The notes: generated by a model from the letters alone, not told the origin. A stretch of 51,045 nt of DNA, filler included, from Dirinaria sp. TL-2023a (GCA_051941275.1; 3 parts of 3 records of this genome joined end to end with filler, not necessarily neighbours in it), one strand, 5' to 3'; counted from the whole stretch's first letter, positions 16,969 to 51,045 are shown. Numbers and translations are program-made.

Positions 16969-17068
16969 NNNNNNNNNNNNNNNNNNNNNNNNNNNNNNNN
17001 NNNNNNNNNNNNTTAATTAATTAANNNNNNNNNNNNNNNNNNNNNNNNNNNNNNNNNNNNNNNNNNNN
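16969..17068. other. Assembly gap with artificial linker N44-TTAATTAATTAA-N44
   Basis: Exactly 100 bp; the central 12-mer has stops in all six frames; an identical construct occurs at 34027-34126. Confidence 0.97.
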
Positions 17069-34026: not shown

Positions 34027-34126
34027 NNNNNNNNNNNNNNNNNNNNNNNNNNNNNNNNNNNNNNNNNNNNTTAATTAATTAANNNNNNNNNNNNNNNNNN
34101 NNNNNNNNNNNNNNNNNNNNNNNNNN
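34027..34126. other. Assembly gap with artificial linker N44-TTAATTAATTAA-N44
   Basis: Same 100-bp construct as at 16969-17068. Confidence 0.97.
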
Positions 34127-34300
34127 TTAGTATTGGTTTCGATGAGATTTGTTGCTGTGGAAACTCGATGGCATGATTACTCTTTTGATTCAATTTTTTT
34201 TGTTTAGATGCGCATCATACAAAGCATACCCAACCCAACCACCCATATAACGTCCCATCGCAACCGACTTTTCCACGTACAGTCCTGTTCGCTCTGACGC

Positions 34301-35683
34301 CTACGAGCTGCCTCCATTATCGATCTGTCCGCACGGCCCATTCCCAATCGTATACCCCGAGTCCGGACCGAACCCGGCGCTGGTCTTGAAAAGCTGACCG
34401 AAGTTCTGCGACGCGTCGCACTGCCCGAGAGTGAAGTAGAAGCATCTGGCTTGGCCCGGGTACTGCGCGAATCCCGTACAACCGGCCGTTTGCTGGCACT
34501 GGACGCAGCACGCCGTGGCGTCGGAGATAGCCGCTTCGTTCGTGGTCGGCGGGGTGCCTGCACCGGCGTAGTAGATTTGGAAGATCCCCTGGTTGCCGTT
34601 CGCGTGGTTGACCACGTTGTTGGCGTCGCACGCGGCATAGACGGTGGAGGAGGCTTGGGTGACCGTGACAGTTTGGGTCGCGGTGGTCGTGGTTGTCGAG
34701 GACGCGGTTTCCGTGGCGGAGAAAGTGAGAGTTGTCGTGGTCGTGGTGCTGGCTGGGGCGGCAACGGAGGTGGTTGTTTCCGTTGCAGTGACGGTCGACT
34801 GTGAAAGTTATGAGAACGTTTTTCTTTTCGGCCGGTGTGCGCCTCCGGGGGGATTTGGAAATGGTCAGACTTACGGTAAGGGTGCTTGTAGCTGTAGGTA
34901 AAGTCGTGGTAACGGTGTTCGTGGCAGTATATATCTTGCTGCTGGTAGTCTTGGCAACGACAAGAGCGCCACAGATCACCGTCTGGGGATATTGATGGAA
35001 CGAGCCCGGTTGCCCGACTGGGGGACATATCGGATTCTTGGCAGCAACCCGCTCTTCAACACGTCGTCCACGAATGGCTGGCGCCGGGATCGCAGCTATC
35101 TCGACGGATCTCTTTTTGGGGACGTAGCCAGGCTCTTGGGCCAAAGGTGTAAAACCAGCCGGAGTGGGCACGGTCGAAGTAGCTACGGAGCTTGTCGAGG
35201 TGGTCGTGCTGGTGGTGTCTGTCGTTATCACGACGGTGGTAGTAGACTTATGAGAACATTAGCCAAAAACAGCGGCATCAAACCCGTAGGTTCAGCAAGA
35301 TCTCGAGAGTGTTATGGAACTCACTGTAGAGGTCAGCGAGTCGGTTTCTGTGAAGGTGTCTGTGGGCGTGGTAACGACGGTCGATGTTGTCTAAGATCGT
35401 CAGCATTGTGAGTCCTATCCTGCAAGAAGGAAGACTTATGTCATACAGTCGATGTGGTCGTACTTGTAGTGGTCTGTGGCGGAGGCGTTATTGTCGAGGT
35501 TGGTGTTGTAGTGAACTTTTTGGTGATTGTGACCGGAACAGTCAAAGCATAGGACGTGGTCTTGACCGAAGTCGATTTCGATCCATATTTAGTGGTGCAG
35601 AGCTTCGCGGTCGAGTATTCATAGGCTTGGGCAGGGAAAGGATGCCCCAAAAGAGCAGTAAGAGCCAGAAGAATGAAATACAT
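34301..35683 (-). CDS. Secreted Thr-rich (mucin-like) protein with Cys-rich C-terminal domain (apple/PAN-like spacing); multi-exon
   Basis: Signal peptide MYFILLALTALLG, Thr/Ser tracts, dibasic PKKR site and C-terminal ACCVQCQQTAGC...C...C...IGNGPCG. Several short GT-AG introns. Confidence 0.75.
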
Positions 35684-38143
35684 GTTGGAGATGATGGAGA
35701 AGTTTCACCCTTGGTGTCTGAAAGCGCGTGCAGGACGAGGGAGAGGGGAGCAAGGTGAAGCCATTAATATAGATGGCCAGAAGAGGCCCATCTTGTTTCC
35801 CATCTATCTCTCTTGCTGGCAAGTCCATACCAGGCTGGACACAAACGCAAGTACGCTAATTACGCCATGCTCGTGTTGCTGTTCAGCACATCGTTCACGA
35901 TGTGACGATCCCATTGCACGTTGCCAAAGAGATTAGACAAAGCACTCCGCATTCGATCATGGAACAGAATTCTAACAGCTTGCCATGAGTCCTAGCTGCC
36001 TTAGCTCTGCTCCTGTAAGTTGATTAGTTCGAGATTCAAGCGAAAAAGAGAAGCAGCATGTACGAAGTCTTTTACTGTGTGGAGTTAGTCCATACGGTTG
36101 GTCTTCTTTTTCAGTTTAACCAGGAGTGGTTGTTTGCTGTTGGATTGGCGGATGAGTAGAAAGATCTAGATTTTCGAGTGTCGAGACCATCTCCCGCTAA
36201 GCATGTCAGGGCCCGCTTAGACGTGCTTGGCGCACCCATTCGGCCTCATTTGGCAGTTGGACCCTTTTAGTTCAAAAGCTATACGAACACGAATCTACTT
36301 ACAGTAGTACCTAAGGCAAAAGTCTAAGGTTGTCAGGCCCCCACTGATTTCGTATTTAACCCAAAACTCATCTATTGGCGCGCTTGCCAAACGATCTTTT
36401 TCAATCCATGTGCGAATTTTCCAATCTTCAAAAATCGTAGATGTGTACTCCATCTGATCAGCATACTCATGTATGTCATCGTAAGCAAAAGTCACAATTT
36501 CCCCAAGACGCGAATATTCTTCGACCAATGCATTTTCTCTCGCGCAAATTCAAGACGTTGAAGAGTAGTAATTAAAATTGTGAATTGATAGAATAACATA
36601 GTCTGCTAGATGATACAACTTGCGTATGAGTTAGGAAAAAGCAGCTCAATACGAAGTTTATTACTTCGCCTAAGAAACTGAATGATGGTTCTAGTTTCAA
36701 AAACGTATCGGTTGGGCATAGAAAATAGCCAACTTGTTTCGTTTTGTCTTGTTTTTCATCTTCTGCTCTAGGCTTTTAATATTACAAGGACGTTGATAAA
36801 GTTGAAAATAATCGAAAAGGCTGGAATAAGTGTGGCGTGAGAGGCTCCGAGCGGTCCATACATACCCTATTTGATGCACAAGATCACGCGTCCCTTGGAA
36901 TAAATCTGTTGATTTCTCCCTGATCGAAGTTCCAATAGCGGCGCAGCCGCTAGGTGTAATCTCAGTCGGTGCGGAACCGACGAAAAACCTGCCCTGACAA
37001 ACAGTACAGCGGAGATGGTGAAGAGAAAACTAGGCACGACCAGTACTATCACCGCTTCGAACTCGGCGATCCGGAGTCACAATAAGACACTCATGATTGT
37101 TGCAATAGTGGTTGGATCCTTAGTTACCTTATTCGCGCTCATCGCTTTTGTGCTGAAGTGCGTTATCGGTGGGGATGCTCCATGAGGTTGAAGCGGGGTA
37201 TTGGGTTTTGGAGATGGTGGAGCTCGTTAGGATTGAATGTTCTATTTGATAGAGGTGATGTAGCAGCATGGTATTGTGCCGTTAGCAGAGTCTGTCCAGT
37301 ATGTGGTTTGGTTAATAGCTTCGAACCAAGTTATGGCTGCGTTTGACGATCGTATTTGTTGATCGTTGAGTGTGATCTATCCTGTAGCAGCCGATATCTT
37401 CATGCAGCTCTTTAGCCTTCAGCTTCGTATGCTAAATTCTTGATAGAGTAGTCCGGTAGCAGTAGGCTGTATTGCTTGAAATTGTAAATGCCGATAGAGG
37501 GTAAAGTATGCGTAAGTAAAGCCTCAGTAAGCGCATGAGCAGACTCATTGATCGGGCATTCAGAATCTGGAAAATCAAGTGAAGCACGGATAACGTCGTT
37601 GAGGAGGGATTTCATCTGGACGAACGAAGTCGAATTTACTTCGTATCGAATAGTATCTTCGGTGCCATGAAAGAAGACTCTCTTTCCCCCGGTAAGCGCC
37701 TAGCCTATGCCATAGTTAAGGAATTCACAACCCTCTTCAGCACCGCCAGACATTGAAAAATTTGATCCCCTTAGACCATCCGTAAACCCGTGTCTCCACA
37801 TTCTTATCATGTTGTCATAGAAGGTCCTTCTCATGGCGCCGCTTCCGGTGCTCTCTTTGGCTACTCCTTTTCTTCGACATCCCGTGCCCAAGTTCGTGAA
37901 ACTCGCTTGTTATCCGTTGCATCCCAAGAGTGTACAGCAAAGGTTGAGAAAGACTTGTGGAGTATCGACTGTCCAAAACATACTTTTGATCTCGAACAAA
38001 AGCGGAGTAGGTTCATGTTGTAAGGCACGTTAACTTTCTGCGATTGACATCAATTGAGTGTAAAAGTTTCGAATTGAATTGTTATATCAAATGATTCTCT
38101 CGTGCTTTTCGATCCACGAACATCAAACTTTCTATTACTGAGC

Positions 38144-41100
38144 TTACCGATATCTCAAGGGGATACTCTGCTCAGATAGCTTGAGTGCTCTTCGACCGGA
38201 CTGCAAGGTGCCAGATACGATCCACAACCCAATCCTCGCAATTGATACGTCTGTTATATGCTCATGATCCGTATCTGTGACGTTCTCAGATTCTACAATA
38301 TTGCTAGCCTCTTTCAAGGTTTGCATGATGGCCTTGTCTTGTCTTAAGATAGCATACTGGTAGGACGTCAGTCCCAATGCAGTATATTCGTTATTGACAC
38401 TGGCTCCGTGTTTAAGTAAGAGATGGACAGATGCGGCACTGCCATATATGATGCAATAGCCCAGCAGAGACGATGGATGGCCGCCAATCGTACGCGGATT
38501 ATTATGGTTTGCGCCTTGTGTGAGAAGATACCCAGCAATCTCTAGTTGTATATCTTCGCTGTATTTAGAGTCTAGTTTGCGCATCAAAACGTACCACAGC
38601 GGGGTGGCGGACTGAGAGGCCTCAATCCAATCATGACCTTCATAATATAATGCAGTATCGCATGGTATTGAATAGTTATCGATGGGATACTCGCCTGATA
38701 GGAGGATCTTGATCATGCCAATACGATCCTGGTGCTCGATTGGCACAAAGGCCGGTCCGGCAGCTGCAAGCAGAAGAAGACGGTATTTTTCTCGGGATTC
38801 TTTGTACGTAGCAAAGTTAATTGCCCGCAGATCTAAACAATGCTGAACAAGCGACTTCGCGTTGGCAGCAACCGCCAGAGCAAGTAATTTCCAGGCTGAT
38901 GGGATGGATGGGTCGCTAAATGGAGCAGTCCCAAAAAGAGGCTCCCAGCTTCGGTCAACCCACCACCCAAAATCGCAAGAAGGCCTGGGAGCGCGAGAGT
39001 TTTTGATAGTCTGAAGCAAGACCAGGCTTCGGTCGGCCGCTGAGTCATCTTTGATAGTATGGAGCTCGGTAAATTTGGCATAGTGCAACATATGCTTTTT
39101 GATTGGGGCCGCCCATACTCTACAGGAAACGCTACAAAATAGAAGGAAGTCATTGCCGTTGAAGCCTATGAAATGCGGTTCGATATTTCCCTCTAGTAGT
39201 CTGTCCTGATATTCTCGGGTATACTCCTTGGCCGTAGCGTGAAGAAACTGCACGATTCGAGTGGTGGATTCGGATTGTCTCTCATCTCTCGTCTCAGGAA
39301 CAATGCTTTGATTGGCAAGTAGTTTAATATACTCAGCACTGGTAGTGACATAGGTCTCCAGAAAGCCTCCACTACGACTAGCAAGGCGGCGAAGGTAGGC
39401 TTTTTCAGAGTCTTCTAGATCCGGTGCATCTTGGATTCTCCATTTAGAATCAGTGTAGAAGCGCTTATTTCTCAGGACATAATCGACAGCCGACAGAAAA
39501 GTCTCCAGAGGAAGTGGTTCAACTGTACTCATGGCCACATGCAACATTACATAAGCTTCATCGATATATTGGGAGTCTATATTGTTAAACAGTCAGCCTT
39601 TACTTTTTCTAGCACAGTATAGTCTATGAAAGTAGGGGAGATTTGAATTCAAATGGTGTGCTGAGGAGCTGATGGTGTTGAATTACGAACTTATGGCAAA
39701 GAATGTAATCAGACCAGACTCCACATCATCAGTGTCGACGAAGATGTGGCACCGTACAATGAATTTGCCACAAAAGCAACCGATTTAAATAGTCGGGCGA
39801 TGTAGTTCCAAAGGGTTGATTGATACTTCTGCGAAACCTACCTAGCCTTTTTAGGATATTTGCGTAGAGGTCTTCAAGCTTTTGAGGCATACGAGCGACT
39901 TCGTCTTCAAGGCTCGAATATGGCGATCCGTCACGTATGCCCTTCGCTAGCTGTTCCACGACAAGGCGAACCCAAATAAAGACCCCAAGGGCTTTAAGCG
40001 TGATCTGATGGGTAAGCGTATTTAAACGCTGAGAACTGATAAGTTTTGGATCATCTATGCTGGCTTCCAGTTCACTCCTTGTATATACCTCGATGTCCCT
40101 TCGTGTATGCTCGTGTATGGCCAATCCTGGGTACTTGCCAAAATATTGCTCGAAAACATTCCAAGAACGACTGGCTAAACAAAGTCTAAGAATAACACGA
40201 TCATTTTCGACTTTATGGATCATTGACCTCAGGATATGGGCCAGCTCGTCGTTGTCACCGGCATGCTCGTCAAGTGCATCCAGGAAGAGGATCACTCGGA
40301 ATGGTATCTTCCTCTGTGCAACAATACCGAAAAGAATCGACTTGAGTGAACTTAGATTCCATATGGGACGCTTGATTCCTCCTTGAGCTCTAACGAGTTT
40401 CGTGTACTCTGGTTCAACGCAAAACCAAAGCTCTGGCAGCTGTCTCCATAGAGAACTGATCAACTCTTGTAGCATACCCGTAAGCGATTTCTGTATAGTA
40501 TGACCTCGATCGTGAAAGAAGAATGCGATGCACGACTAATCAGGGCCCTCGAGCCCCTTCAAAAGTTGCCAGGTTTTATCATGATTCATAGCATACTTCA
40601 TAAGCGTCGATTTCCCACTACCAGGCTTCCCCTGAATCCAATAGACAGGACCTGATGTAGCAATGTCTTCATTTAACCAAGCGCTGAAAGATACGGTTTC
40701 TGAGCTGAAAAGCCAATCAAAAGTCTTCTTGTGTGCTTCTTCAACCTCGAGAAAGCGTTCTTTCGTGGCTGCTGTGTTCAGACTATGCATGCAGTCTTTC
40801 TAACCGAATAAGCCTCGAGAAACGCAGTAAGTGCTTACTGTCTTAGACGCACCTGTTTCGTTTTTCCTAGGATCTTCAACAGTGCGCTGTTGACCAACCC
40901 ACCGGCGTAGTTGAGCACTGACGCGTTTGAAGCCCACATCTTCGATACTGCTGAATTTTGTCATGTTGGAATGTTCAGCCGGAATGCTGCCATTGCGCTC
41001 ATGACCAAGTCCAATCTTGGCCGAATCTGTGTCAACAACCTGCCGAAGGATTAGTAATGCAACTGAAGGGCTTCGATATGAAGAACAGGCTTGGCCATGA

Positions 41101-42231
41101 GTACTCGAAGGGTATTTGCGTAGGCGACACTCCGCTGCCTGGATTGTCGAAACACAAACCATAGTGGCCTTCTCTCAAGTTGTAAAATACTCAATGTGCA
41201 AGGCTTACCAGGCGCTTGGTTGTAGGAAAGATCACTAATATTACCACACGGAACCGACCAGCGGCGAAGATTCCGAAAGCAGGTACGAGGACTTACCATA
41301 GTGGAAAACATCCCCCATTTCCTCGTGAGCTTCTCCTCTCTGAAAGAATGAACCTGCAAAATCCGCCTATACTTCTCGACTGTCTGGCTAAAGTCATCAG
41401 ATATCATGTCAAGGGTTTCGGAATTGCGTTCCAAGCCCTGTAGTATCTTGGTGTTTGGCCTCATTCCCGCGGCCTTCGTGATCCGAAAAGCAATTTTGCC
41501 AATAGAAGCAGAACGGGAACCACGGTGCGGGGTTCCCAAGAAACAGATTCCAGACGTTGCTGGTGCTATATCCATCAAAGGTGTCCCTTCCGTCGCCCTA
41601 GACATATTGAGAGCCGCCTTTACTATGATTCCGCCAAGACTGTGGACAACGAAGATTATAGGTTTTCGGTGATGCTCTGACTCTGCTCGCAAATCAACAA
41701 GATCCGAAAGCAGATTCCCGGCGTGCTGGTGTATGGTGTTCCTTGACGCGGAGCTCAAGCTAGCGATGTCTGCATCGTATCCCCATGTGAATATATCAAC
41801 ATCTGGAACCACTTGCGGTAGGAGGTCTTGTGGCCAGTATATGGAATTCTCCAACTCTTTCCCAGCTGAGGAATGGTTATTGCTTTTGGACGTTATATGT
41901 TCGTGGTTTCCCGGTGGATATGGCTTTTCAAAATGTGAGGGTGATTTTGTACGACTCGATGACTTCCATGTCCAGGTCTCATAAGGGTGGCCAAAGAGCC
42001 CATGAACAAATATGATGCTAATCGGGATCAGCTTGAGTCTATTTAAGCGGCTTCGATGATATGGATAGTAAATCCAGGAAGACGCCGGCCTATCACTCTG
42101 GCTGTGGGCATGAACCCAATGCAGAGCAATTGGCTGCATAAGAAGCGTGTGCTTGAAACGACTTACAGTGCCGTCGTAGCCTCGTCAGACCTTGGTACGT
42201 GTATCTCACTAAGTCCATACCGAGAGATCAT
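38144..42231 (-). pseudogene. Fungal NLR-like gene (SesB-like alpha/beta-hydrolase + NACHT + ankyrin repeats), intact except for one in-frame TAG at 40536-40538 (pseudogene or recoded gene)
   Basis: Exons 42231-42167, 42017-41297, 41039-40853, 40795-39842, 39576-38144 (3360 nt). Hydrolase motifs IIFVHGLFG, HSLGG, FLGTPHRGS, HSNMTKF. Walker A GKPGSGKST, Walker B LFLDALDE, GVFIWVRLVV. Degenerate ankyrins (TPLWYV, LLTQGANHN, LLKHGASVN). The exon 3/4 junction is slightly uncertain. Confidence 0.85.
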
Positions 42232-43794
42232 GATCTCGTTGAACGGTAAGTCGAAGGACCTTGCTTGGAGACTCGATGAAGCTACGTAAGCGAGAAACTC
42301 TCATACCTTGAATGTAAGAACGGATTACTAGGACAGAAAAGAAATGAGGCTGAAAAGTGGGGGCCGGGATCAGCTCCAGTAAATGCTTTTTGTAGATAGC
42401 AATTTCAAAATAGCTTCTCCAGCTTGGCACCGTAAGTTTTCTTCACAACATTACTTCTCACCGAGACGATAGACGCTCGCGGATTTACTAGATTTCGATC
42501 TCAACGCATCTCATATGCATTCTCCTGTCGCTGAACTTGATTTTCGAAATCTAGAAAGTTGCCCAGTAGCACGTGTATCGCCAGTGGCACATTTAGAGGA
42601 CGCCTTACCAAAATGCTTGTTCTGGGCAGATGAGAACGATGTATACATTATAGCATCGGAGAGACTGGCAACAGCGAGGTGTAGTCTATATACGTTGAGA
42701 TCGACGGCTGCTTCTCTGCGAAAACTGTTTGCCATGTATAAGAACCGGCGCGGCCATAGAATGCACTGGGCTAGCGAGCAGTGAGTTAGCACAAGTATGA
42801 TAGTGTTCAACCCTATCGATCACTATATCCATGTATATTACCAACCTACTCGAGAGTGCAGCCTGGGAACAATCCACGACGGTCAGGGAGGAGAGATCAA
42901 TTGACCCATTCGGACTCCTTTAGCATCTCCTGGATATTTCTCTATAGCGCATGGATAGTGGCAAGCGCGCTCTTATCGTGACTCAAGGAGAGCAAAATAT
43001 CCATTCTCTAATCTTGACAACTGCTCCAATACAAATGTTGAGTACGGACTGCATCGCTGGGCCGGGCCTTTTTTAAGAGGGTGTAAGTCGGTATTCGTAA
43101 ACAATCGCGTAAGTGTGAGATGGCTTTTAACTATAACAGTAAGTAGCATCTTTCCTCCTTCTAATTTTGATTCTTCATGGCTTCCCGTAAATCATTACTG
43201 TGGTCTCTGAATGTCCGGTCGAAAACCCTAGTCGTTCTCTTTTATGCAAGGGCCCTTAAGTGAAGAGATAAAAAATCTGATTACTCCTTAACAGGTCATG
43301 TGCCAAGGCAGCCTTGATATTTGTACCCACAGAGCCTTCGACGAAAGGCAGGAGAATGATTACCCAGGAGGCCAGGCCACTAATAATGCGCGCCAGTACG
43401 AGTACATATGCAGTTTCCCGGACTAGTTGTTGTTTTAAGCTTTTGCCCAAAATATAGCTTCGTGTCTAGTGCTTCTAATAGCAGCGTTGGAGATTTCTTC
43501 CAAGCGACCCTGACTGGGAGGAATTACTGGCGAATATCATCAATGGATGTGCTCTTGGATTGTGGAAGGTTCGAAAGATGAGGTGTTTGGAATAGACGAG
43601 GTGATAGTTAACCGCGCTTCTCACCAAGAAGATCAAGATGCCTAGCTATAGGGAAGTCCTGAGGGCGAAGGTAGGAGGTGGTGGGATTTGGAACAAGGAA
43701 TAATGAAATCATGCTTGATGAGGTGATCGTGTACGTGAACGGTGTAATTCTATATACCTTACTAATTAAAAGTGATTAATCTAGGTAGACGAAT

Positions 43795-45319
43795 TCAAGG
43801 AACAAGGCCAAAAAGTCTTCCTGCGACACGATCCCATTCATCGTCCCACCTTCGAGTACCCTCGCGCAAAGCGCCTTCTCTAAGATTTTGAAGCTCTTTT
43901 CCGTCCCCTCCAAACAGGTCCATAAGGATAGATTTTAGTCCTAATGCGTCAGTGAAGCTTCTCCCATTAACGCCATCCTTGACAAGCTCCGACCAAGCCT
44001 CAAAATCACCCCAGCCGGCAACTGGAAGACCGGCACCAAACATATCGACCACTTTCATGGGTAGATCGACACCGCTGCTGCTCTTGTGAAGACTCACTCC
44101 AAGATCTGCAATACTTAGCAGACTTGCGTACTCTTCGGTGCTGAGCCAGGCGGTCCGGAAGGTTACCATTTCAAGCTTGTCTTGGGATTTAAGCAGCTGA
44201 ATCTGATCCAGGAAATGATCTTTTAGCGGGCCTTTGCCAGTGATGACGGCGATAATCTCGGGTAGGTAAGGATGCGATGTCATTGCGAGGTCCGAGTACT
44301 GTACAAGCGCATCGAGGAGAATGCTGAAATCTTCATCCGGGGTCCACGATGTGGAGCTAACAATTAACTTGGTCTTACCCAGCTCAACAGTTCCTGCGAA
44401 GTCGGCGACTTCTGGTAATTTTTCTAGGAATGCGAGGCGCCGCTCACGCACCAGGGGCTGGAAGTGGGCCGCGGGTCGATCGTGTAGTGACAAAACCGGC
44501 GCTTGAGCTCTGTAGTCTCTCTTGATCACTCGCATCATCGCGTCCGTCACGGTCAAATGAGCGCTCGCCAAGCGGGAGCAGACATGCTCATAGACGCGTG
44601 AGATCTGTACCAGGGCGTGGGCTTTACTAAGCCGAAGAGCAAGTATGGTGTGTCCGAAATTGTGCCAGTCGATAACGAGGCGGCTGTTACGCAGGAATGA
44701 TATAACGCCCGCAATTGCAAGTGTAGGAATTGAAGGTGGGTTCTGTCCTTTTGTTAATACCAATGACGCAGTTGGAGAGGGTCAGGTAGCGATGTCCGTC
44801 CCTCGCTCACCTGCACAAGGAGCCATTTTGCAGGCTTTGCCTTATAACCCAACGCAATCCACAGACTCCATGTCTGAAATAAGACCTTTAAGGGTCCCAG
44901 GAACACAAATAGCCATTTGTTACCAGCGCGAAGGAAGTCAGGTGTGGGAGTAACGGAGATTATCTCGATTGCCGAATTGCTAGCAATATCTGGGTGCAAC
45001 GCGGAGTCTATGTCCTCGTCTATTTAAGCGATCGAGCTCTCAGCAGTGAAGACTGGGTCAAAGTAATACCCTTGTATCCGATGAGATCTACGAGGCCACC
45101 GTGTTTCGCAATACTGAGTGCATGGTATTGCATACGGGGACTCCTGCCAATGTCTCCCAGAACAAGGACTTGTATTCTGGGTTTGCTCTTGCCATTGCTG
45201 TTTGTTTTCTTGGCTTCAGCGCCATAAGCGCCATACTGTGATGGTAAAAGGTATAGACCAATAGAGAGTAGAGTCGAGAAGAGCACCAGTACTGGCAGCA
45301 GGCTTTCCACTGATAGCAT
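43795..45319 (-). CDS. ALG1: Chitobiosyldiphosphodolichol beta-1,4-mannosyltransferase (3 exons)
   Basis: [39 protein letters not shown] and [16 protein letters not shown]. Introns 45008-45069 and 44743-44810. Confidence 0.95.
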
Positions 45320-45828
45320 GGGGGAGATAGGGCATTGGCCAAGAGCAATTCAGAGAGTCCAAGCCAGAACAGAAGAGGTCTCCCAAGGCTTTGAGAAATC
45401 CATCTTTCCAAAGAAAAGGGGGATTCTACCGCTGTAGGCCAAAGGACAAAAATGAGAGATGCACTTCGTACTCCTTAACATGCCTTGGAATTTCCCCGAC
45501 CGAGGGATCAGCGTCACTGTGCATTACGGCGAGCCCTATACGCGAGTAGTGCAGTTCCCCTGACCGAACCCGATTGGGGATGTTTGTAGTCCAGGGCAGA
45601 CAAAGCCCATCGTCATTTCAATTTCCTACCCCTCGGCATAAGGTACCACTGGGCTCTACCCACATCCTGCAGTTACAGTACTTTAAGAGTATCGCCTTCG
45701 TAGCCATATGGCAGGTGCATAAGGCTGCTCTTACCTCAGCCCTCGTGGCGCTAGCATTGCACTAATGATACCTCTACCTCGTCTCTCCTAGGTAGTCCCT
45801 TCGCTCTTTGGGGAGGGGGAAAGTGCCA

Positions 45829-48793
45829 ATGATGGAAACCATTAATGTCATGCCTGCCACTGTGCACAGCAATGGCCATATTCACGGGCACAGTCAGAAA
45901 TCAATGCCTCAAAGGCAGCCTTTGCAACCGACATCTCTGAATAGCAGCCCATACATGAATGGAGGTCACCACTTGGCTGAAGCAAAACAACACGCGCATA
46001 CTCGGTCTCTACACATACACTCGCCCGTGGATCCGGAGAAGACGCGCTCAGAACATAGTCGATCAAGATCAAATCTCCCACCTCCCACCCTTCCCGCCAT
46101 GGACGTTGTCAATGTACGGCCCAAGAGCATGGCCAGGAGGATTAGCGTGGGGCTTCCTACACACCTGAAGCTCGAGAGCAGCAACTATGGTTTTCAGCCC
46201 GCGAGCAAACCCACATATGCGACTTCGAGCGAAGGGGTTAAGAGGTTGGTCCCAACACTGGCCGTTATTTCATAGACGTTGCTCAGATACTGACCGGTGT
46301 AGGCGACACTGGATTACAGCTTCAGAAGTTGTAAGCTCGACGTTAATCTCCCTCCCATTTATCCTACTTGCAGTCACCAAAAACCTACATGGAGCGGCGC
46401 AAGTATCGGAAGGTGCTTTAGGGAATGGTCCGCTTGAGAAGCAAGCTCAACAAGAGGTCACAGGCTCAAAGTTACCACTAGCTGTTGGACTAGATGCACT
46501 ATCAACGTGTTTCCTGACATCTGGAATTTTGTTGCTCGTCGGAGCAACTGTAAAAGTGCCTGGCCTGCTCAGTGGTGCAACAGGGGAAAGACAGGGCGCA
46601 AGTGGCCATAGACAAACAGGGGGCGCGCAGACTGGCATGCTGACCGTGGCCGGCTTTCAGAAGATAGTGACCAGGTGCCTGAAGGTGGGTCTACCATTTT
46701 ACGCATGCCTGAAACTCGGAGATGTGCGGACGGTTTCAACTCTAGTGACGGCCATGGTCACAGATCTGACGGCTTCGGATGAAAATCCTCAAGGTTCGAA
46801 TCGAAGCCTTAAAACCCTTCTAAGATCTCGGCGGTGGACGGTCACAATTCTTACACTTCAATTTTTGAGTGATCTAATCGGTTTGACGAACAGCACTGGG
46901 GTTGCAGGCATCCTCACCGGCTATCTGGCGTTATCTGTTTCAGTTTTTGCTCTCCCGCTTCCATTTCCTATACACACGTCAAGAAAACCCCACATTTCTT
47001 CTCCGGTCGAGCCACCGCCTCCCACTGGCTCGAACACCTTAGCTACGCTGAAAGAGGTGCCGACTACTTCCAATACCACTTTAACACCTGAACGGGCGCT
47101 ATCATCATTGGTTTACACTCCGGAAGATGTCGACTTTACATTATCAGCCGGTGTGCTCGCTGCAGGAATCAGTCTCGTCCTTTTTTTTCTTTTTGCGATA
47201 CCCAACAGTGGCATTGTTTCAGGATACCAAATAGGTGGTGGGCTGCTTACTACATTTGCGGCCGTGTTATCTATGACTTTCACGCAACCACAGAGTCTGC
47301 GTCAAAGTCGAGGTGTTGGTCTTGTGCTTGGATCCTCGTTCGCCTGCTTATCTTCAGCCGTCCTCACACCAGGATCATGGACAATGTTAAGCTTTCAGTG
47401 CGTTTCTATCAGCATTTATTTCGCGGCCACAGTCAAAGATACCCAGTCGTCGGCTTCGTCTTCTCGTCACAACCACACCCAACACCATCATACCAGTGAG
47501 CACTCTCATCACGATGAACTCTCAGCCTTTTCGCGGTACCTTCTAGACTGTTCTGGGAAGTGGCCGCTGCTACACAGCATACTCCTGGAGAAAGACTCAA
47601 GAAGGATCTTCTACTTTATGATTCTTAACTTTGCGTTTATGCTCGTGCAGACCTTCTACGGGATAGCTACAGGCTCTCTAGGTCTGCTGAGCGATAGCAT
47701 ACATATGTTCTTCGACTGCCTTGCACTCGTTGTAGGTCTATGTGCGGCCGTTATGAGCAAGTGGCCTCCTAGCACACGGTTTCCGTATGGCTTCGGCAAG
47801 GTGGACACCCTCGCAGGTTTTGCCAATGGCATTTTCTTGATGCTCATCAGTATCGAGATAGTCTATGAGGCCGCTGAAAGGCTGGTGGAAGGCAGCGAAA
47901 TGCAGAGACTCAGCGAGCTACTGACTGTCAGTGGTCTCGGCCTCGTGGTCAACCTAGTCGGTATTACTGCGTTTGGCCATGCCCATCACGGACATGGGCA
48001 TTCACATGGAGGCCATGATCATGGCCACGCACATCCTGGGCACGCTCATGCGGACCATTCTCATACACATTGCGAGCACTCGACAAATTCACACATCAGC
48101 CACAACCATGGTCCGAACCCTATCCATCACCATCACCACCACCACCACCACGAGCACGACCACCACGAGCATGAGCATGAGCACGCTCATTTGCACGATC
48201 ATCTCAACTGCCCTACACCCTCACCGTACTCTTCGATACCGGCGACCCCCTCTAAACCAATGCATCCACACTCTCACCATCACGGCCACGGGCATCACCA
48301 TCACGGAAACGAGAATATGTACGGCATCTATTTGCACATCCTAGCAGACACCCTCGGCTCCGTCGCCGTTGTCATATCCACCATCCTAATCCATTTCTAC
48401 GGCTGGGCAGGTTTTGACCCTGTCGCTTCGGTCATCATCGCAGTCCTGATCTTTGCTTCTGCAGTCCCGCTCGTCAAGTCATCTGCTCGCACGCTGCTCC
48501 TGACCATCCCCGAAGACACCGAGTTCGACCTTCGGGAAGCGTTGGCCGGGGTTAGCGCTTTGAGGGGTGTTTCGGGGTACGCGGTGCCTAAATTCTGGCT
48601 GGAAGAGGGAGACGACCGGCGAGTGTTGGGCGTAATGCATGTATTTGTCGCGAAGGGTGCGGACATGGAAGATGTGAGGGAGAGGGCAGTGAATTACCTG
48701 AGGACCCGGGGCATGAACATTCTGGTGCAGGTGGAGAGGGAGGGCAGTGGAAGGTGTTGGTGCAGGGGCGCTAGTGGGCTAAGTCCACGATGA
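45829..48793 (+). CDS. MSC2: CDF-family zinc transporter (Msc2/Cis4 type; 2 exons)
   Basis: DSRRIFYFMILN, SLGLLSDSIHMFFDC, His-rich loop and NENMYGIYLHILADTLGS. Intron 46245..46302. Confidence 0.9.
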
Positions 48794-49474
48794 GACCCGA
48801 TGGACTTCGAAGGTGAAATGCGGGAGAGCTAAAAAGCCTCGTCATGCGTGGATGTGGTATGAGGCCAGTGCTCTCGGTCGATGAGGATTTCGGCGTAGCA
48901 TACATCATGAGCAAGCGTTCTACCATTCCATAGTAAAAAGAGATCAACGAGCACAGCTTTATGATGTGCATCTGCCTGGCATTCGCCTCGATCCTTTGGT
49001 GTGGAATGTAGTGAACCGACGATCAGTACGAGTCAATGCGGTTCTATTCGCAGCGGATGCAATAGTAAGTCCTACATGGGTACAAGGCGGCATTGTTGAT
49101 AGCATTCGTGCCACTTTGTCCAGTTGGAAAGGAGTGAAAGGAATCGTGATACGTTATGCGCCTTACCTGATTCATCCTAGTCCAGCCAATGGGAGAGAGG
49201 AAACTCTGGGCAGCGACTTCGAGACAATCACGTGACTTGCTGCGCCCCGAGAATCCCGCCTCGCCCTCTTTGGGAATCGACTGAAGGGAATCGATTAATT
49301 GACGGTTGCCTGCTCCATCTCCGTACTTTCTTCTTCTTATTATTATTGCCAAGACGCCCTCTTCTACTTTACTTTTCCTTTCCCAAAACTAGCCCTTTTC
49401 CCCTCTTAACTCATTCCGTACTCTCGACTTCAAACCACCATCACCTGCATCTGATTCTGACTTCTCTGATCGCC

Positions 49475-50702
49475 ATGTACGGTGTCCTGCACCACCTTGC
49501 CCGGCGAGGCTTCGAAGCCACGCAAGACAACTATAATCATGGCTTCGAGATCAAGAGCGCCGAAGACCAGCCAGATGAGCAGATCAGAAGGTTCCCCATC
49601 TGGGGCATTGCCATCATCTGGTCGACTTTCATGCTGTTCCTCTTCGTGCAGTTTGCTGTGAGTGAAATCATTGCCTTAAACAGCTTACCGCCGACTAATA
49701 GCATGCTAGATCCGTTACACCTTGGGGTCTATCGTAGCCACTTTGACTGCCATCGAGACTCCGTCTGCAACCGCTTTCACTGTCGACCCGCCCGCCCCTT
49801 CTCACGACAGCGATGTACCTCTTCTCTCGGCCGACCAGAAGGTCGATGAAACCGAACCCGAGCTCTTCCTCATCAAGTCCAAGCCCATCACCTCCAAAAT
49901 CCGCACCACCATAAAGCACCTCCGCGCCCAAGCCGGTCCATGGTCGAGGTTCCGCGGTCTCCAAGTCGCGATCGTGTACCACCTGATCTATGCCGTCTTC
50001 TACAACCTCGTCGTCGGACGCTTCGCCTCTCCCCTGGGCCGTTCGCTCTTCGCCATCGTCGCTCACACCGCGCTGGCCAGACTACACATGACATGGACCC
50101 ACGTCGTCGTGAGCAACCCGAGCCCAAAGACCTGGTGGCGCCGTATCCCCAGCACCAAGTCCGCCGCCAAAATCCTGCTCCCAACAGCCATCTGGGCAAC
50201 TGCGGACCAACTCGCCATTTACATCCCCGTCGCACTGGCTTACGTCTACGGTCTCAACCGCCATGTTGAAGACCCGTCGTACTACAAGACCGCCCCTCCC
50301 AAGGAGCTCGTCGGCATGTGGGCGCAGCTCCTTAGCTGCGCGCTGGTGGCGCTGTTCATCGTCTTCGCCATCGTCTTCCCCGCTGAAGTCACCCTTACGC
50401 GTGTGCAGGCGTCGATGCTCCCGGAAGAAGACGAGGCGATCGTGCCCTTTGACCGCACCTTCGGCGGCAGGGTCCAGCCGGCCATCACCGGTGGCAGCGG
50501 CTGCGTCAGCATGCTGGACGCGTGGAAGACATTCGACTGGGCCGCGAGGTTCAGGCTGGTCAAGCTCTACGTCAAGATCTTCGCCATTCAGGTCACCACC
50601 ACGCTCCTCTTCATCGGTGTCCTCGTCGGCGAGCTCCGACTCATCCTGGGCGACGACCTTCACAAAGTCGTCAAGATGGCCCATCAAGGTCTGAAGTTGT
50701 AG
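49475..50702 (+). CDS. Conserved fungal multi-pass membrane protein of unknown function (2 exons)
   Basis: Intron 49658..49709 (GTGAGT...TAG) joins ORFs 49232 and 49722 in frame. Several hydrophobic helices, conserved-looking VTLTRVQASMLPEEDEAIVPFDRTF, and strong GC3 bias. Confidence 0.85.
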
Positions 50703-51045
50703 GGAGGTTGGTTGGAAATCTGGGAGCTTGTGGGCGGGCGAATAGTCAACACCAGACGCCCATAATCCCAAAACTATCATTACTGAAGTCGATATGGAGT
50801 GGGGTGCTCTTCATCTCTCGTATTGACAAGGGGCATATGTAGAAGGTTTTTTGGATACGTGCATGGAATGCAAGCATTTGTACTCGTACTTTACTCATCA
50901 GCAAGCGTAATAAGCCTCTCCGCATTCTTCTTCACACATGCAATCAACCCCCATCTAACAGCAGAGGCGGAACGCTATTGAATTGATGCCCCAAAACCCT
51001 ATGCCTGCCTCACCCACGATTCTTAATCCCCCACATGCCCAATGC

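Follow-up and report, generated by a model that had tools for sequence, protein, structure and literature searches.

In the available text of Dyrka et al. 2014 (PMC4986451), sesB-like domains are listed among the four commonest N-terminal domains of fungal NOD-like receptors (NLRs), and a sesB-like/NACHT/ANK architecture is given as an example. According to the accessible part of PMC13449251, fungal NLRs are often pseudogenised in a strain-dependent manner through stop codons, frameshifts and transposon insertions, and several of 54 curated Podospora NLRs are pseudogenised, with intact copies in other strains. A third body of work concerns pseudogenes that are corrected at the RNA level. Fungal A-to-I mRNA editing has been documented in Sordariomycetes and, as a case of independent origin, in Pyronema (available portions of PMC11087585, PMC10776026 and PMC11156358); neither Aspergillus nidulans nor Botrytis cinerea showed any (available portions of PMC11087585 and PMC11156358). 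Correction of pseudogenes by UAG>UGG editing is described for Fusarium graminearum and Neurospora crassa in the accessible text of PMC10776026 and PMC11156358; in that of the former, the TAGs of 71 F. graminearum PSC pseudogenes were gained within Sordariomycetes and many PSC sites arose at ancestral nodes.

Here we analyze an NLR gene of Dirinaria, a lichen-forming genus of the Caliciaceae (class Lecanoromycetes), in which a single TAG interrupts the reading frame. With the sesB-like/NACHT/ANK receptors, as far as PMC4986451 is available, this gene shares a SERAC1/sesB-related N-terminal hydrolase, a central NACHT (NPHP3_N) domain with Walker A and B motifs and, in its homologues, an ankyrin-type C-terminus. 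It differs from them in carrying a stop that separates the two Walker motifs, in an ankyrin signal that falls below the cut-off and in its host class, Lecanoromycetes, which the available text of PMC4986451 does not mention. Like the pseudogenised Podospora alleles in the accessible part of PMC13449251, it is an NLR disabled by a stop whose copy in a close relative is intact and expressed; unlike many of those alleles, which are AT-rich from RIP after duplication, it shows normal RIP indices, and it has one disabling change only. With the PSC pseudogenes of F. graminearum and N. crassa, as described in the available portion of PMC10776026, it has in common that one in-frame TAG replaces what was ancestrally a sense codon in a gene that is otherwise intact, but its host lies outside the known editing classes, its TAG is not shared with the sampled relatives and consistent hairpin-loop support for the site is lacking. 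What we find favours an ordinary knock-out mutation of recent date over an RNA-editing switch. As read here, the locus represents one more fungal NLR lost to point mutation, in keeping with the rapid turnover and strain-level pseudogenisation of the family.

Materials and methods

The analysis was carried out on a stretch of 51,045 nt from Dirinaria sp. TL-2023a (GCA_051941275.1), here called the window; the piece of it that contains the gene spans 34127-51045 (16919 nt). Transcript evidence came from four small RNA-seq runs (X1-X4) of a single lichen-metagenome sample, which are therefore treated as one observation. The word shares of these runs with the stretch lie between 0.06 and 0.18; the search that yielded them turned up no DNA run. 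Logan contigs of the runs were placed on the window at a likeness of at least 90%, giving partial cover (37800-38443, for example, is uncovered), and the exon joints of the gene model were taken from the spliced contigs, which stem from a close relative.

Codon-level comparison of substitutions between these contigs and the window used 40 of 131 differences, all but two of which, the stop itself aside, lie upstream of the stop. Protein comparisons drew on a stored collection, outside which the proteins of the RNA contigs themselves fall. The motif count downstream of the stop is based on 177 stored proteins, five of which lack the motif, the deposited protein of this locus (P0001) among them.

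Results

Gene model and deposited annotation

The joined coding sequence lies on the minus strand (42231..38144) and comprises 3360 nt in five exons, that is, 1119 codons followed by TAA (Table 1). This is the length put forward in the initial annotation, which had also proposed plausible GT-AG splice sites, and the RNA contigs of the relative use all four introns, every joint being GT..AG on the minus strand. The contigs extend the exon 1 region up to 42306. An alternative start at ATG 42139, which would give a 3417-nt model, was rejected: the contigs splice 42017 to 42167, so this ATG is intronic. In the minus-strand reading GAT TAG TCG (40541..40533), the TAG at codon 411 of the 1119 is the lone internal stop, and the frame contains no frameshift, no further stop and no other break, as had been claimed. 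The full-length receptor frame is thus interrupted at one codon.

Table 1. Features of the Dirinaria NLR gene, with coordinates counted from the first letter of the window.
Feature	Coordinates	Strand	Basis
Exon 1, coding part	42167..42231	-	ATG at 42231; joint 42017/42167 in X1 and X3 RNA contigs; frame
Intron 1, 149 nt	42018..42166	-	GT..AG (CT..AC on +); X1 and X3 contigs
Exon 2, sesB-like / DUF676 alpha/beta-hydrolase domain	41297..42017	-	Pfam DUF676 8.2e-05; homologue alignment
VHSLGG nucleophile motif (exon 2)	41647..41630	-	H-S-L-G-G conserved at 90% or more in 14 aligned full-length homologues
Intron 2, 257 nt	41040..41296	-	GT..AG; X1, X2 and X3 contigs
Exon 3, end of hydrolase domain (AEHSNM) and linker	40853..41039	-	joints 41039/41297 and 40795/40853 in RNA contigs
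AEHSNM histidine motif (exon 3)	40979..40962	-	H of ..HS.MTKF conserved in the full-length homologue alignment
Intron 3, 57 nt	40796..40852	-	GT..AG; X1-X4 contigs
Exon 4, NPHP3_N/NACHT NTPase, holds TAG	39842..40795	-	Pfam; unbroken in RNA contig X2 record 6
Walker A, GKPGSGKST	40631..40605	-	
In-frame TAG, codon 411, ancestral Trp (TGG)	40536..40538	-	sequence; homologues; RNA contigs of relative
Three window-lineage GC>AT transitions in 9 nt (W411*, R413C, V414I)	40529..40537	-	RNA contigs; P0121/P0122
Walker B, ILFLDALDE	40292..40266	-	D-A-L-D-E invariant among 38 sequences
Intron 4, 265 nt, 3' of TAG	39577..39841	-	GT..AG; X2 contigs only
Exon 5, DUF7791 then weak ankyrin-like C-terminus	38144..39576	-	Pfam; joint 39576/39842 in X2; TAA at 38144-38146

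The hypothetical protein deposited at NCBI for this locus (P0001, 850 residues) is 100% identical to the product of this model over the part that it covers. It starts at an internal Met and jumps from ...NET to ELISSLW..., thereby dropping both the P-loop and the TAG. Since an RNA contig of the relative (X2 record 6) spans 39842-40795 unbroken, crossing the annotated intron unspliced, that intron is a detour of the gene-caller round the stop. The RNA-supported model corrects the deposited annotation, in which an invented intron hid the stop and lost the P-loop.

Domain content and family membership

The predicted product has the tripartite layout of an NLR, with a DUF676 hydrolase followed by NACHT and by DUF7791 with an Ank-like region, and full-length homologues of 1070-1208 aa are laid out in the same way. 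Pfam assigns the N-terminal part to DUF676 (serine esterase; 8.2e-05, 22.6 bits against a cut-off of 20.3), and this score above cut-off, together with the conserved GxSxG motif and histidine, argues for a sesB-like or SERAC1-type hydrolase. The nucleotide-binding module expected of a fungal NLR (a STAND NTPase of the NACHT clade) is represented by NPHP3_N (1.6e-23), NACHT (3.5e-07) and the Walker A and B motifs, and is followed by DUF7791 (1.3e-06). Ank_2 scores 3.9e-04 (21.4 bits, under the cut-off of 27.3), so ankyrins are weakly supported in this copy. Of the motifs reported as intact in the initial annotation, the hydrolase Ser and His and both Walker motifs were located and are conserved in homologues; the ankyrins were borne out weakly. 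On its domains and motifs, the gene is classed as a fungal NOD-like receptor of the sesB-like hydrolase/NACHT/ankyrin-like type. The TAG falls 22 codons past Walker A and five codons ahead of a conserved FFFHDRG motif. Truncation at this point cuts the NACHT core after Walker A and before Walker B and does not coincide with a domain boundary.

The stop occupies an ancestral tryptophan codon

At the aligned column of the stop, tryptophan is found in 33 of 37 longer homologues (the remainder being Y in two, C in one and V in one) and in all ten of the closest. When all stored proteins with the downstream FFFH-type motif are considered, the count is 159 of 172 (Y 9, C 2, V 1, S 1). The nine closest homologues (P0121-P0129; 56-86% identity, all with W) are ORF calls whose tails beyond the exon end (RLG...) align to nothing, as would be expected from run-in to an intron; they were accordingly taken as genomic, so that their W stands for TGG in DNA. 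The closest near protein match in the collection is 86% identical, and a metagenome scan for close DNA relatives returned two loci only, at 32-36% identity, too distant to be compared codon by codon.

These comparisons, along with the TGG of the relative's RNA contigs, uphold the proposal that a Trp belongs at this position. Alignment of the homologues establishes that codon 411 formerly read as Trp (TGG), from which the TAG is derived, on the polarity given by P0121 and P0122, by one G>A on the coding strand (C>T on the plus strand at 40537). Retention of the stop was encountered neither in the ten closest homologues, all of which carry W, nor in the RNA of the nearest relative, which reads TGG; as W is present in every relative sampled, the TAG is, within this sampling, confined to the one lineage.

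RNA contigs represent a related genotype

At 40537, where the window has T on the plus strand, the X1, X2 and X3 contigs have C, and hence TGG in place of TAG. They differ from the window by 2-8% overall, with roughly 100 differences per run in X1-X3 that fall into every substitution class; in X1, on the plus strand, there are 30 T>C, 16 G>A, 15 C>T and 12 A>G differences, plus transversions. By region, the divergence amounts to 2.2-3.1% in the NACHT and DUF7791 exons (3.1% in exon 4, the nearest relative seen); the hydrolase exon and the C-terminal part diverge by 6-8%. Within the 40 of 131 differences compared at codon level, U precedes the changed base in two of ten coding-strand A>G differences, against a baseline of 19% of all A in the coding sequence, and the corresponding plus-strand count is two T/C differences in TpA out of ten. 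Because the differences span every class and the A>G changes lack the U(-1) mark, they speak for another genotype and not for editing. The contigs thus stem from another genotype, species or paralogue, and the simplest reading is that the genome behind them has TGG.

The contigs demonstrate transcription and splicing of a near-identical gene in this relative. Synonymous and nonsynonymous changes number 19 and 21, respectively, in the same 40 of 131 differences, which with a rough correction for sites would mean moderate purifying selection over the shared history of the two copies.

As a separate observation, coding-strand differences with A in the window and G in the RNA exceed the reverse in X1 (30 vs 15, p = 0.036), with similar figures in X2 (21 vs 10) and X3 (30 vs 16), all from the same sample. 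This excess in X1-X3 is without the U(-1) mark.

Changes clustered around the stop

Differences from the RNA contigs are clustered at 40529, 40532 and 40537, and at all three positions the two nearest outgroups place the derived state in the window lineage. The probability of such a cluster is about 4e-4 for a given 9-nt stretch and about 0.04 once some 106 such stretches of exon are allowed for. The cluster could have arisen in a multi-base event or as a conversion tract, or could reflect a mixed consensus.

Discussion

A probable recent nonsense allele

The interrupted gene is probably a nonsense allele, of recent origin and private to its lineage, of a sesB-like/NACHT/ankyrin-like NLR. The stop is present in the assembly, the relatives have TGG and the rest of the gene is unbroken; the alternative of a recent loss-of-function allele, which the initial annotation had listed behind its headline, is the one that best fits a gene with the TAG as its sole lesion and relatives that all read TGG. 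We infer a genuine mutation of recent date that yields a null allele, whether as a polymorphism among strains or as a pseudogene of very young age. In this scenario, a single G>A on the coding strand would have turned the conserved Trp codon TGG into TAG, and translation would end after 410 residues, leaving the hydrolase and Walker A only, a predicted fragment with no working NTPase. Given that intron 4 and about 2.1 kb of spliced sequence lie 3' of the stop, the TAG-bearing mRNA would be a likely target of nonsense-mediated decay. The mutation would be too young for further damage to have built up, hence the intact downstream frame, and recoding would be unnecessary to account for it. The 709 intact downstream codons fit a young null allele and a gene still in use equally well. 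The clustered derived changes, for their part, could mean a conversion tract or a mixed-strain consensus and not a simple point mutation.

The coincidence of a TAG with a Trp codon adds little. The coding sequence offers 99 single-transition routes to a stop, 50 of them at Trp codons, and TGG>TAG makes up 25 of the 99, so that a TAG at a Trp carries little weight. About one in four random transition nonsense mutations would look alike in this gene, a figure that may serve as a guide for other single-TAG-at-Trp sites; at such a chance rate, a site of this kind is by itself no pointer to editing.

Possible assembly or consensus artefact

An artefact would mean that the genome has TGG, the TAG being a base-call error or a chimeric consensus of genotypes or paralogues. 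The assembly is a MAG built from short contigs, the window consists of three pieces of about 16.9 kb with N spacers between them, and three differences in 9 nt round the stop are what a local mis-join might yield. Consensus substitution errors are nevertheless rare in short-read assemblies, the contig of the gene has no N and exon 4 shows no indel against the homologues, and even a variant contributed by a co-occurring genotype would count as a genuine allele. We therefore regard an artefact as unlikely.

Possible restorative mRNA editing

The headline of the initial annotation was an A-to-I editing or readthrough switch at this codon. Under restorative editing, deamination of the A would let the TAG be read as UGG in one kind of tissue (the apothecia, for example), and full-length NLR would be made only there. 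Such a site would give fungi their first editing-gated immune receptor and lichens their first case of mRNA editing; it would also add a further class to those with fungal mRNA editing and connect this process with innate immunity. Several features agree with it: the UAG has the editing-preferred U at -1 (automatic for any UAG), the stop sits at an ancestral Trp with the remaining gene intact, the near relative's RNA contigs have G at the site and UAG>UGG correction has the precedents in F. graminearum and N. crassa cited above. A named PSC case from that Fusarium/Neurospora set is reportedly AMD1. The class of the host leaves some room as well, inasmuch as PMC11156358, in its available text, states that which Pezizomycotina classes edit remains to be determined.

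The G in the RNA loses its force with the contigs that carry it, which differ from the window in every substitution class and show U(-1) at the baseline frequency, as a genotype 2-8% divergent would. All nine of the closest genomic homologues read TGG, so the TAG is not conserved. The Tad2-Tad3-Ame1 interaction is reported as born in the Sordariomycetes (accessible parts of PMC11087585 and PMC11156358). Lecanoromycetes go unmentioned in the available text of those same two papers, as do NACHT, NLR and heterokaryon incompatibility in that of PMC10776026, and a literature search combining RNA editing, lichen and A-to-I gave nothing on lichen fungi among the matches listed.

RNA structure lends no consistent support either. 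The 81-nt fold round the TAG has a free energy of -16.3 kcal/mol (z = +0.79 vs shuffles) and places the A outside a hairpin loop. In sampled ensembles, the hairpin-loop probability of the A is 0.84, 0.02 and 0.0 for flanks of 15, 20 and 30 nt on either side, respectively, and the share of UA sites of the coding sequence (173-176 sites) that score as high or higher is 36%, 92% and 100%; the placement of the A is thus unstable and varies with the folding window. The NLR is moreover the sole TAG-bridged domain within the window, for none of the five other TAG-bridged ORFs there contains a Pfam domain. With TGG in the relatives, RNA from a divergent genotype and no stable hairpin loop, the headline reading is not supported: tissue-restricted editing of this TAG is very unlikely, and a genuine restorative-editing site in a Lecanoromycete, with a cell-death-capable NLR made in one tissue only, is most improbable.

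Readthrough, stop usage and RIP

Programmed readthrough of the UAG, or a functional truncated product of 410 residues with the hydrolase only, strikes us as exceedingly improbable. The hydrolase domain is complete 5' of the stop and the downstream frame is open, but no notable RNA structure lies 3' of the stop, the truncation splits the NACHT core between its two Walker motifs, and UAG-UCG-UGC is not known to be among the contexts that promote readthrough. TGA closes five of eight ORF ends that were examined, TAA closes two and TAG one (a prenyltransferase, putative terminus), a faint hint that TAG may be an ordinary stop in this organism.

The proposal that the mutation is RIP-like holds for the context of the site, a CpA>TpA change on the plus strand, but not for the gene, in which a RIP signature is absent: its indices (TpA/ApT 0.74; (CpA+TpG)/(ApC+GpT) 1.30) resemble those of the remaining window and run opposite to the RIP direction.

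A minor observation concerns the starts of the homologous ORF calls, twelve of which, together with P0022, begin at MKFA, immediately after the Walker A motif. A recurrent upstream lesion behind these starts was considered and set aside in favour of a simpler and likelier account: on the assumption that those species have no ATG further upstream in the exon, the Met of MKFA would be its first.

Gene models at the NLR locus

The deposited model of the NLR product, the 850-residue hypothetical protein P0001 from a Dirinaria sp. MAG, starts at an internal Met and joins NET to ELISSLW by splicing, so that both the P-loop and the in-frame TAG are lost. The intron on which this model relies is unused in the RNA contigs of the relative, assembled from the lichen RNA-seq runs. 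Thirteen homologues, including P0022, P0131-P0134 and P0136-P0142, start at MKFA, just behind the Walker A motif; this Met is likely to have served gene callers as the first ATG of the exon, rather than to mark a lesion common to all of them.

Divergence and transcript structure

The relative's RNA departs from the window unevenly along the gene. The exons for NACHT and DUF7791 differ by 2.2-3.1%, whereas values are higher for the hydrolase exon (6.2-7.2%) and for the ankyrin-like C-terminal part (6.4-8.1%). One contig of run X1 carries an additional A that is absent from the X3 contig. Three derived GC>AT transitions, the stop among them, fall within 9 nt. The GC content of the window is 49.5%, and no blocks affected by RIP were seen across it. 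At the 5' end, record 13 of the X3 contigs stops at 42306, right behind an AG, with 3 letters unaligned, and this end may reflect an extra 5' UTR intron. Further upstream, RNA contigs about 8% divergent from the window showed no connection to the NLR gene.

Genomic context

Two spacers, each composed of 44 N, 12 bases and 44 N, split the window into three pieces of approximately 16.9 kb. The NLR gene lies in the last of these, whose length of 16919 nt matches that of the contig recorded for its NCBI protein; linkage of the NLR with any gene to the left of 34127 therefore cannot be assumed. The remaining ORFs are ordinary fungal genes.

Coordinates of features in the window
Feature	Position	Strand	Remarks
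NLR gene	38144-42231	-	
Additional A (X1 contig)	behind 38932		
Clustered transitions	40529-40537		
P0001 model, discrepant region	40465-40853	-	
End of X3 record 13	42306-42308	-	
Unconnected RNA contigs	42504-42600		
Spacers	16969-17068; 34027-34126		
NLR piece	34127-51045		
Other ORFs	168-33519; 43798-50699		VWA, GH2 mannosidase-like, tRNase Z, Ste24-like M48 protease, M16 peptidase, ZW10/Dsl1, amino-acid transporter, prenyltransferase, cation efflux, glycosyltransferase (weak match)
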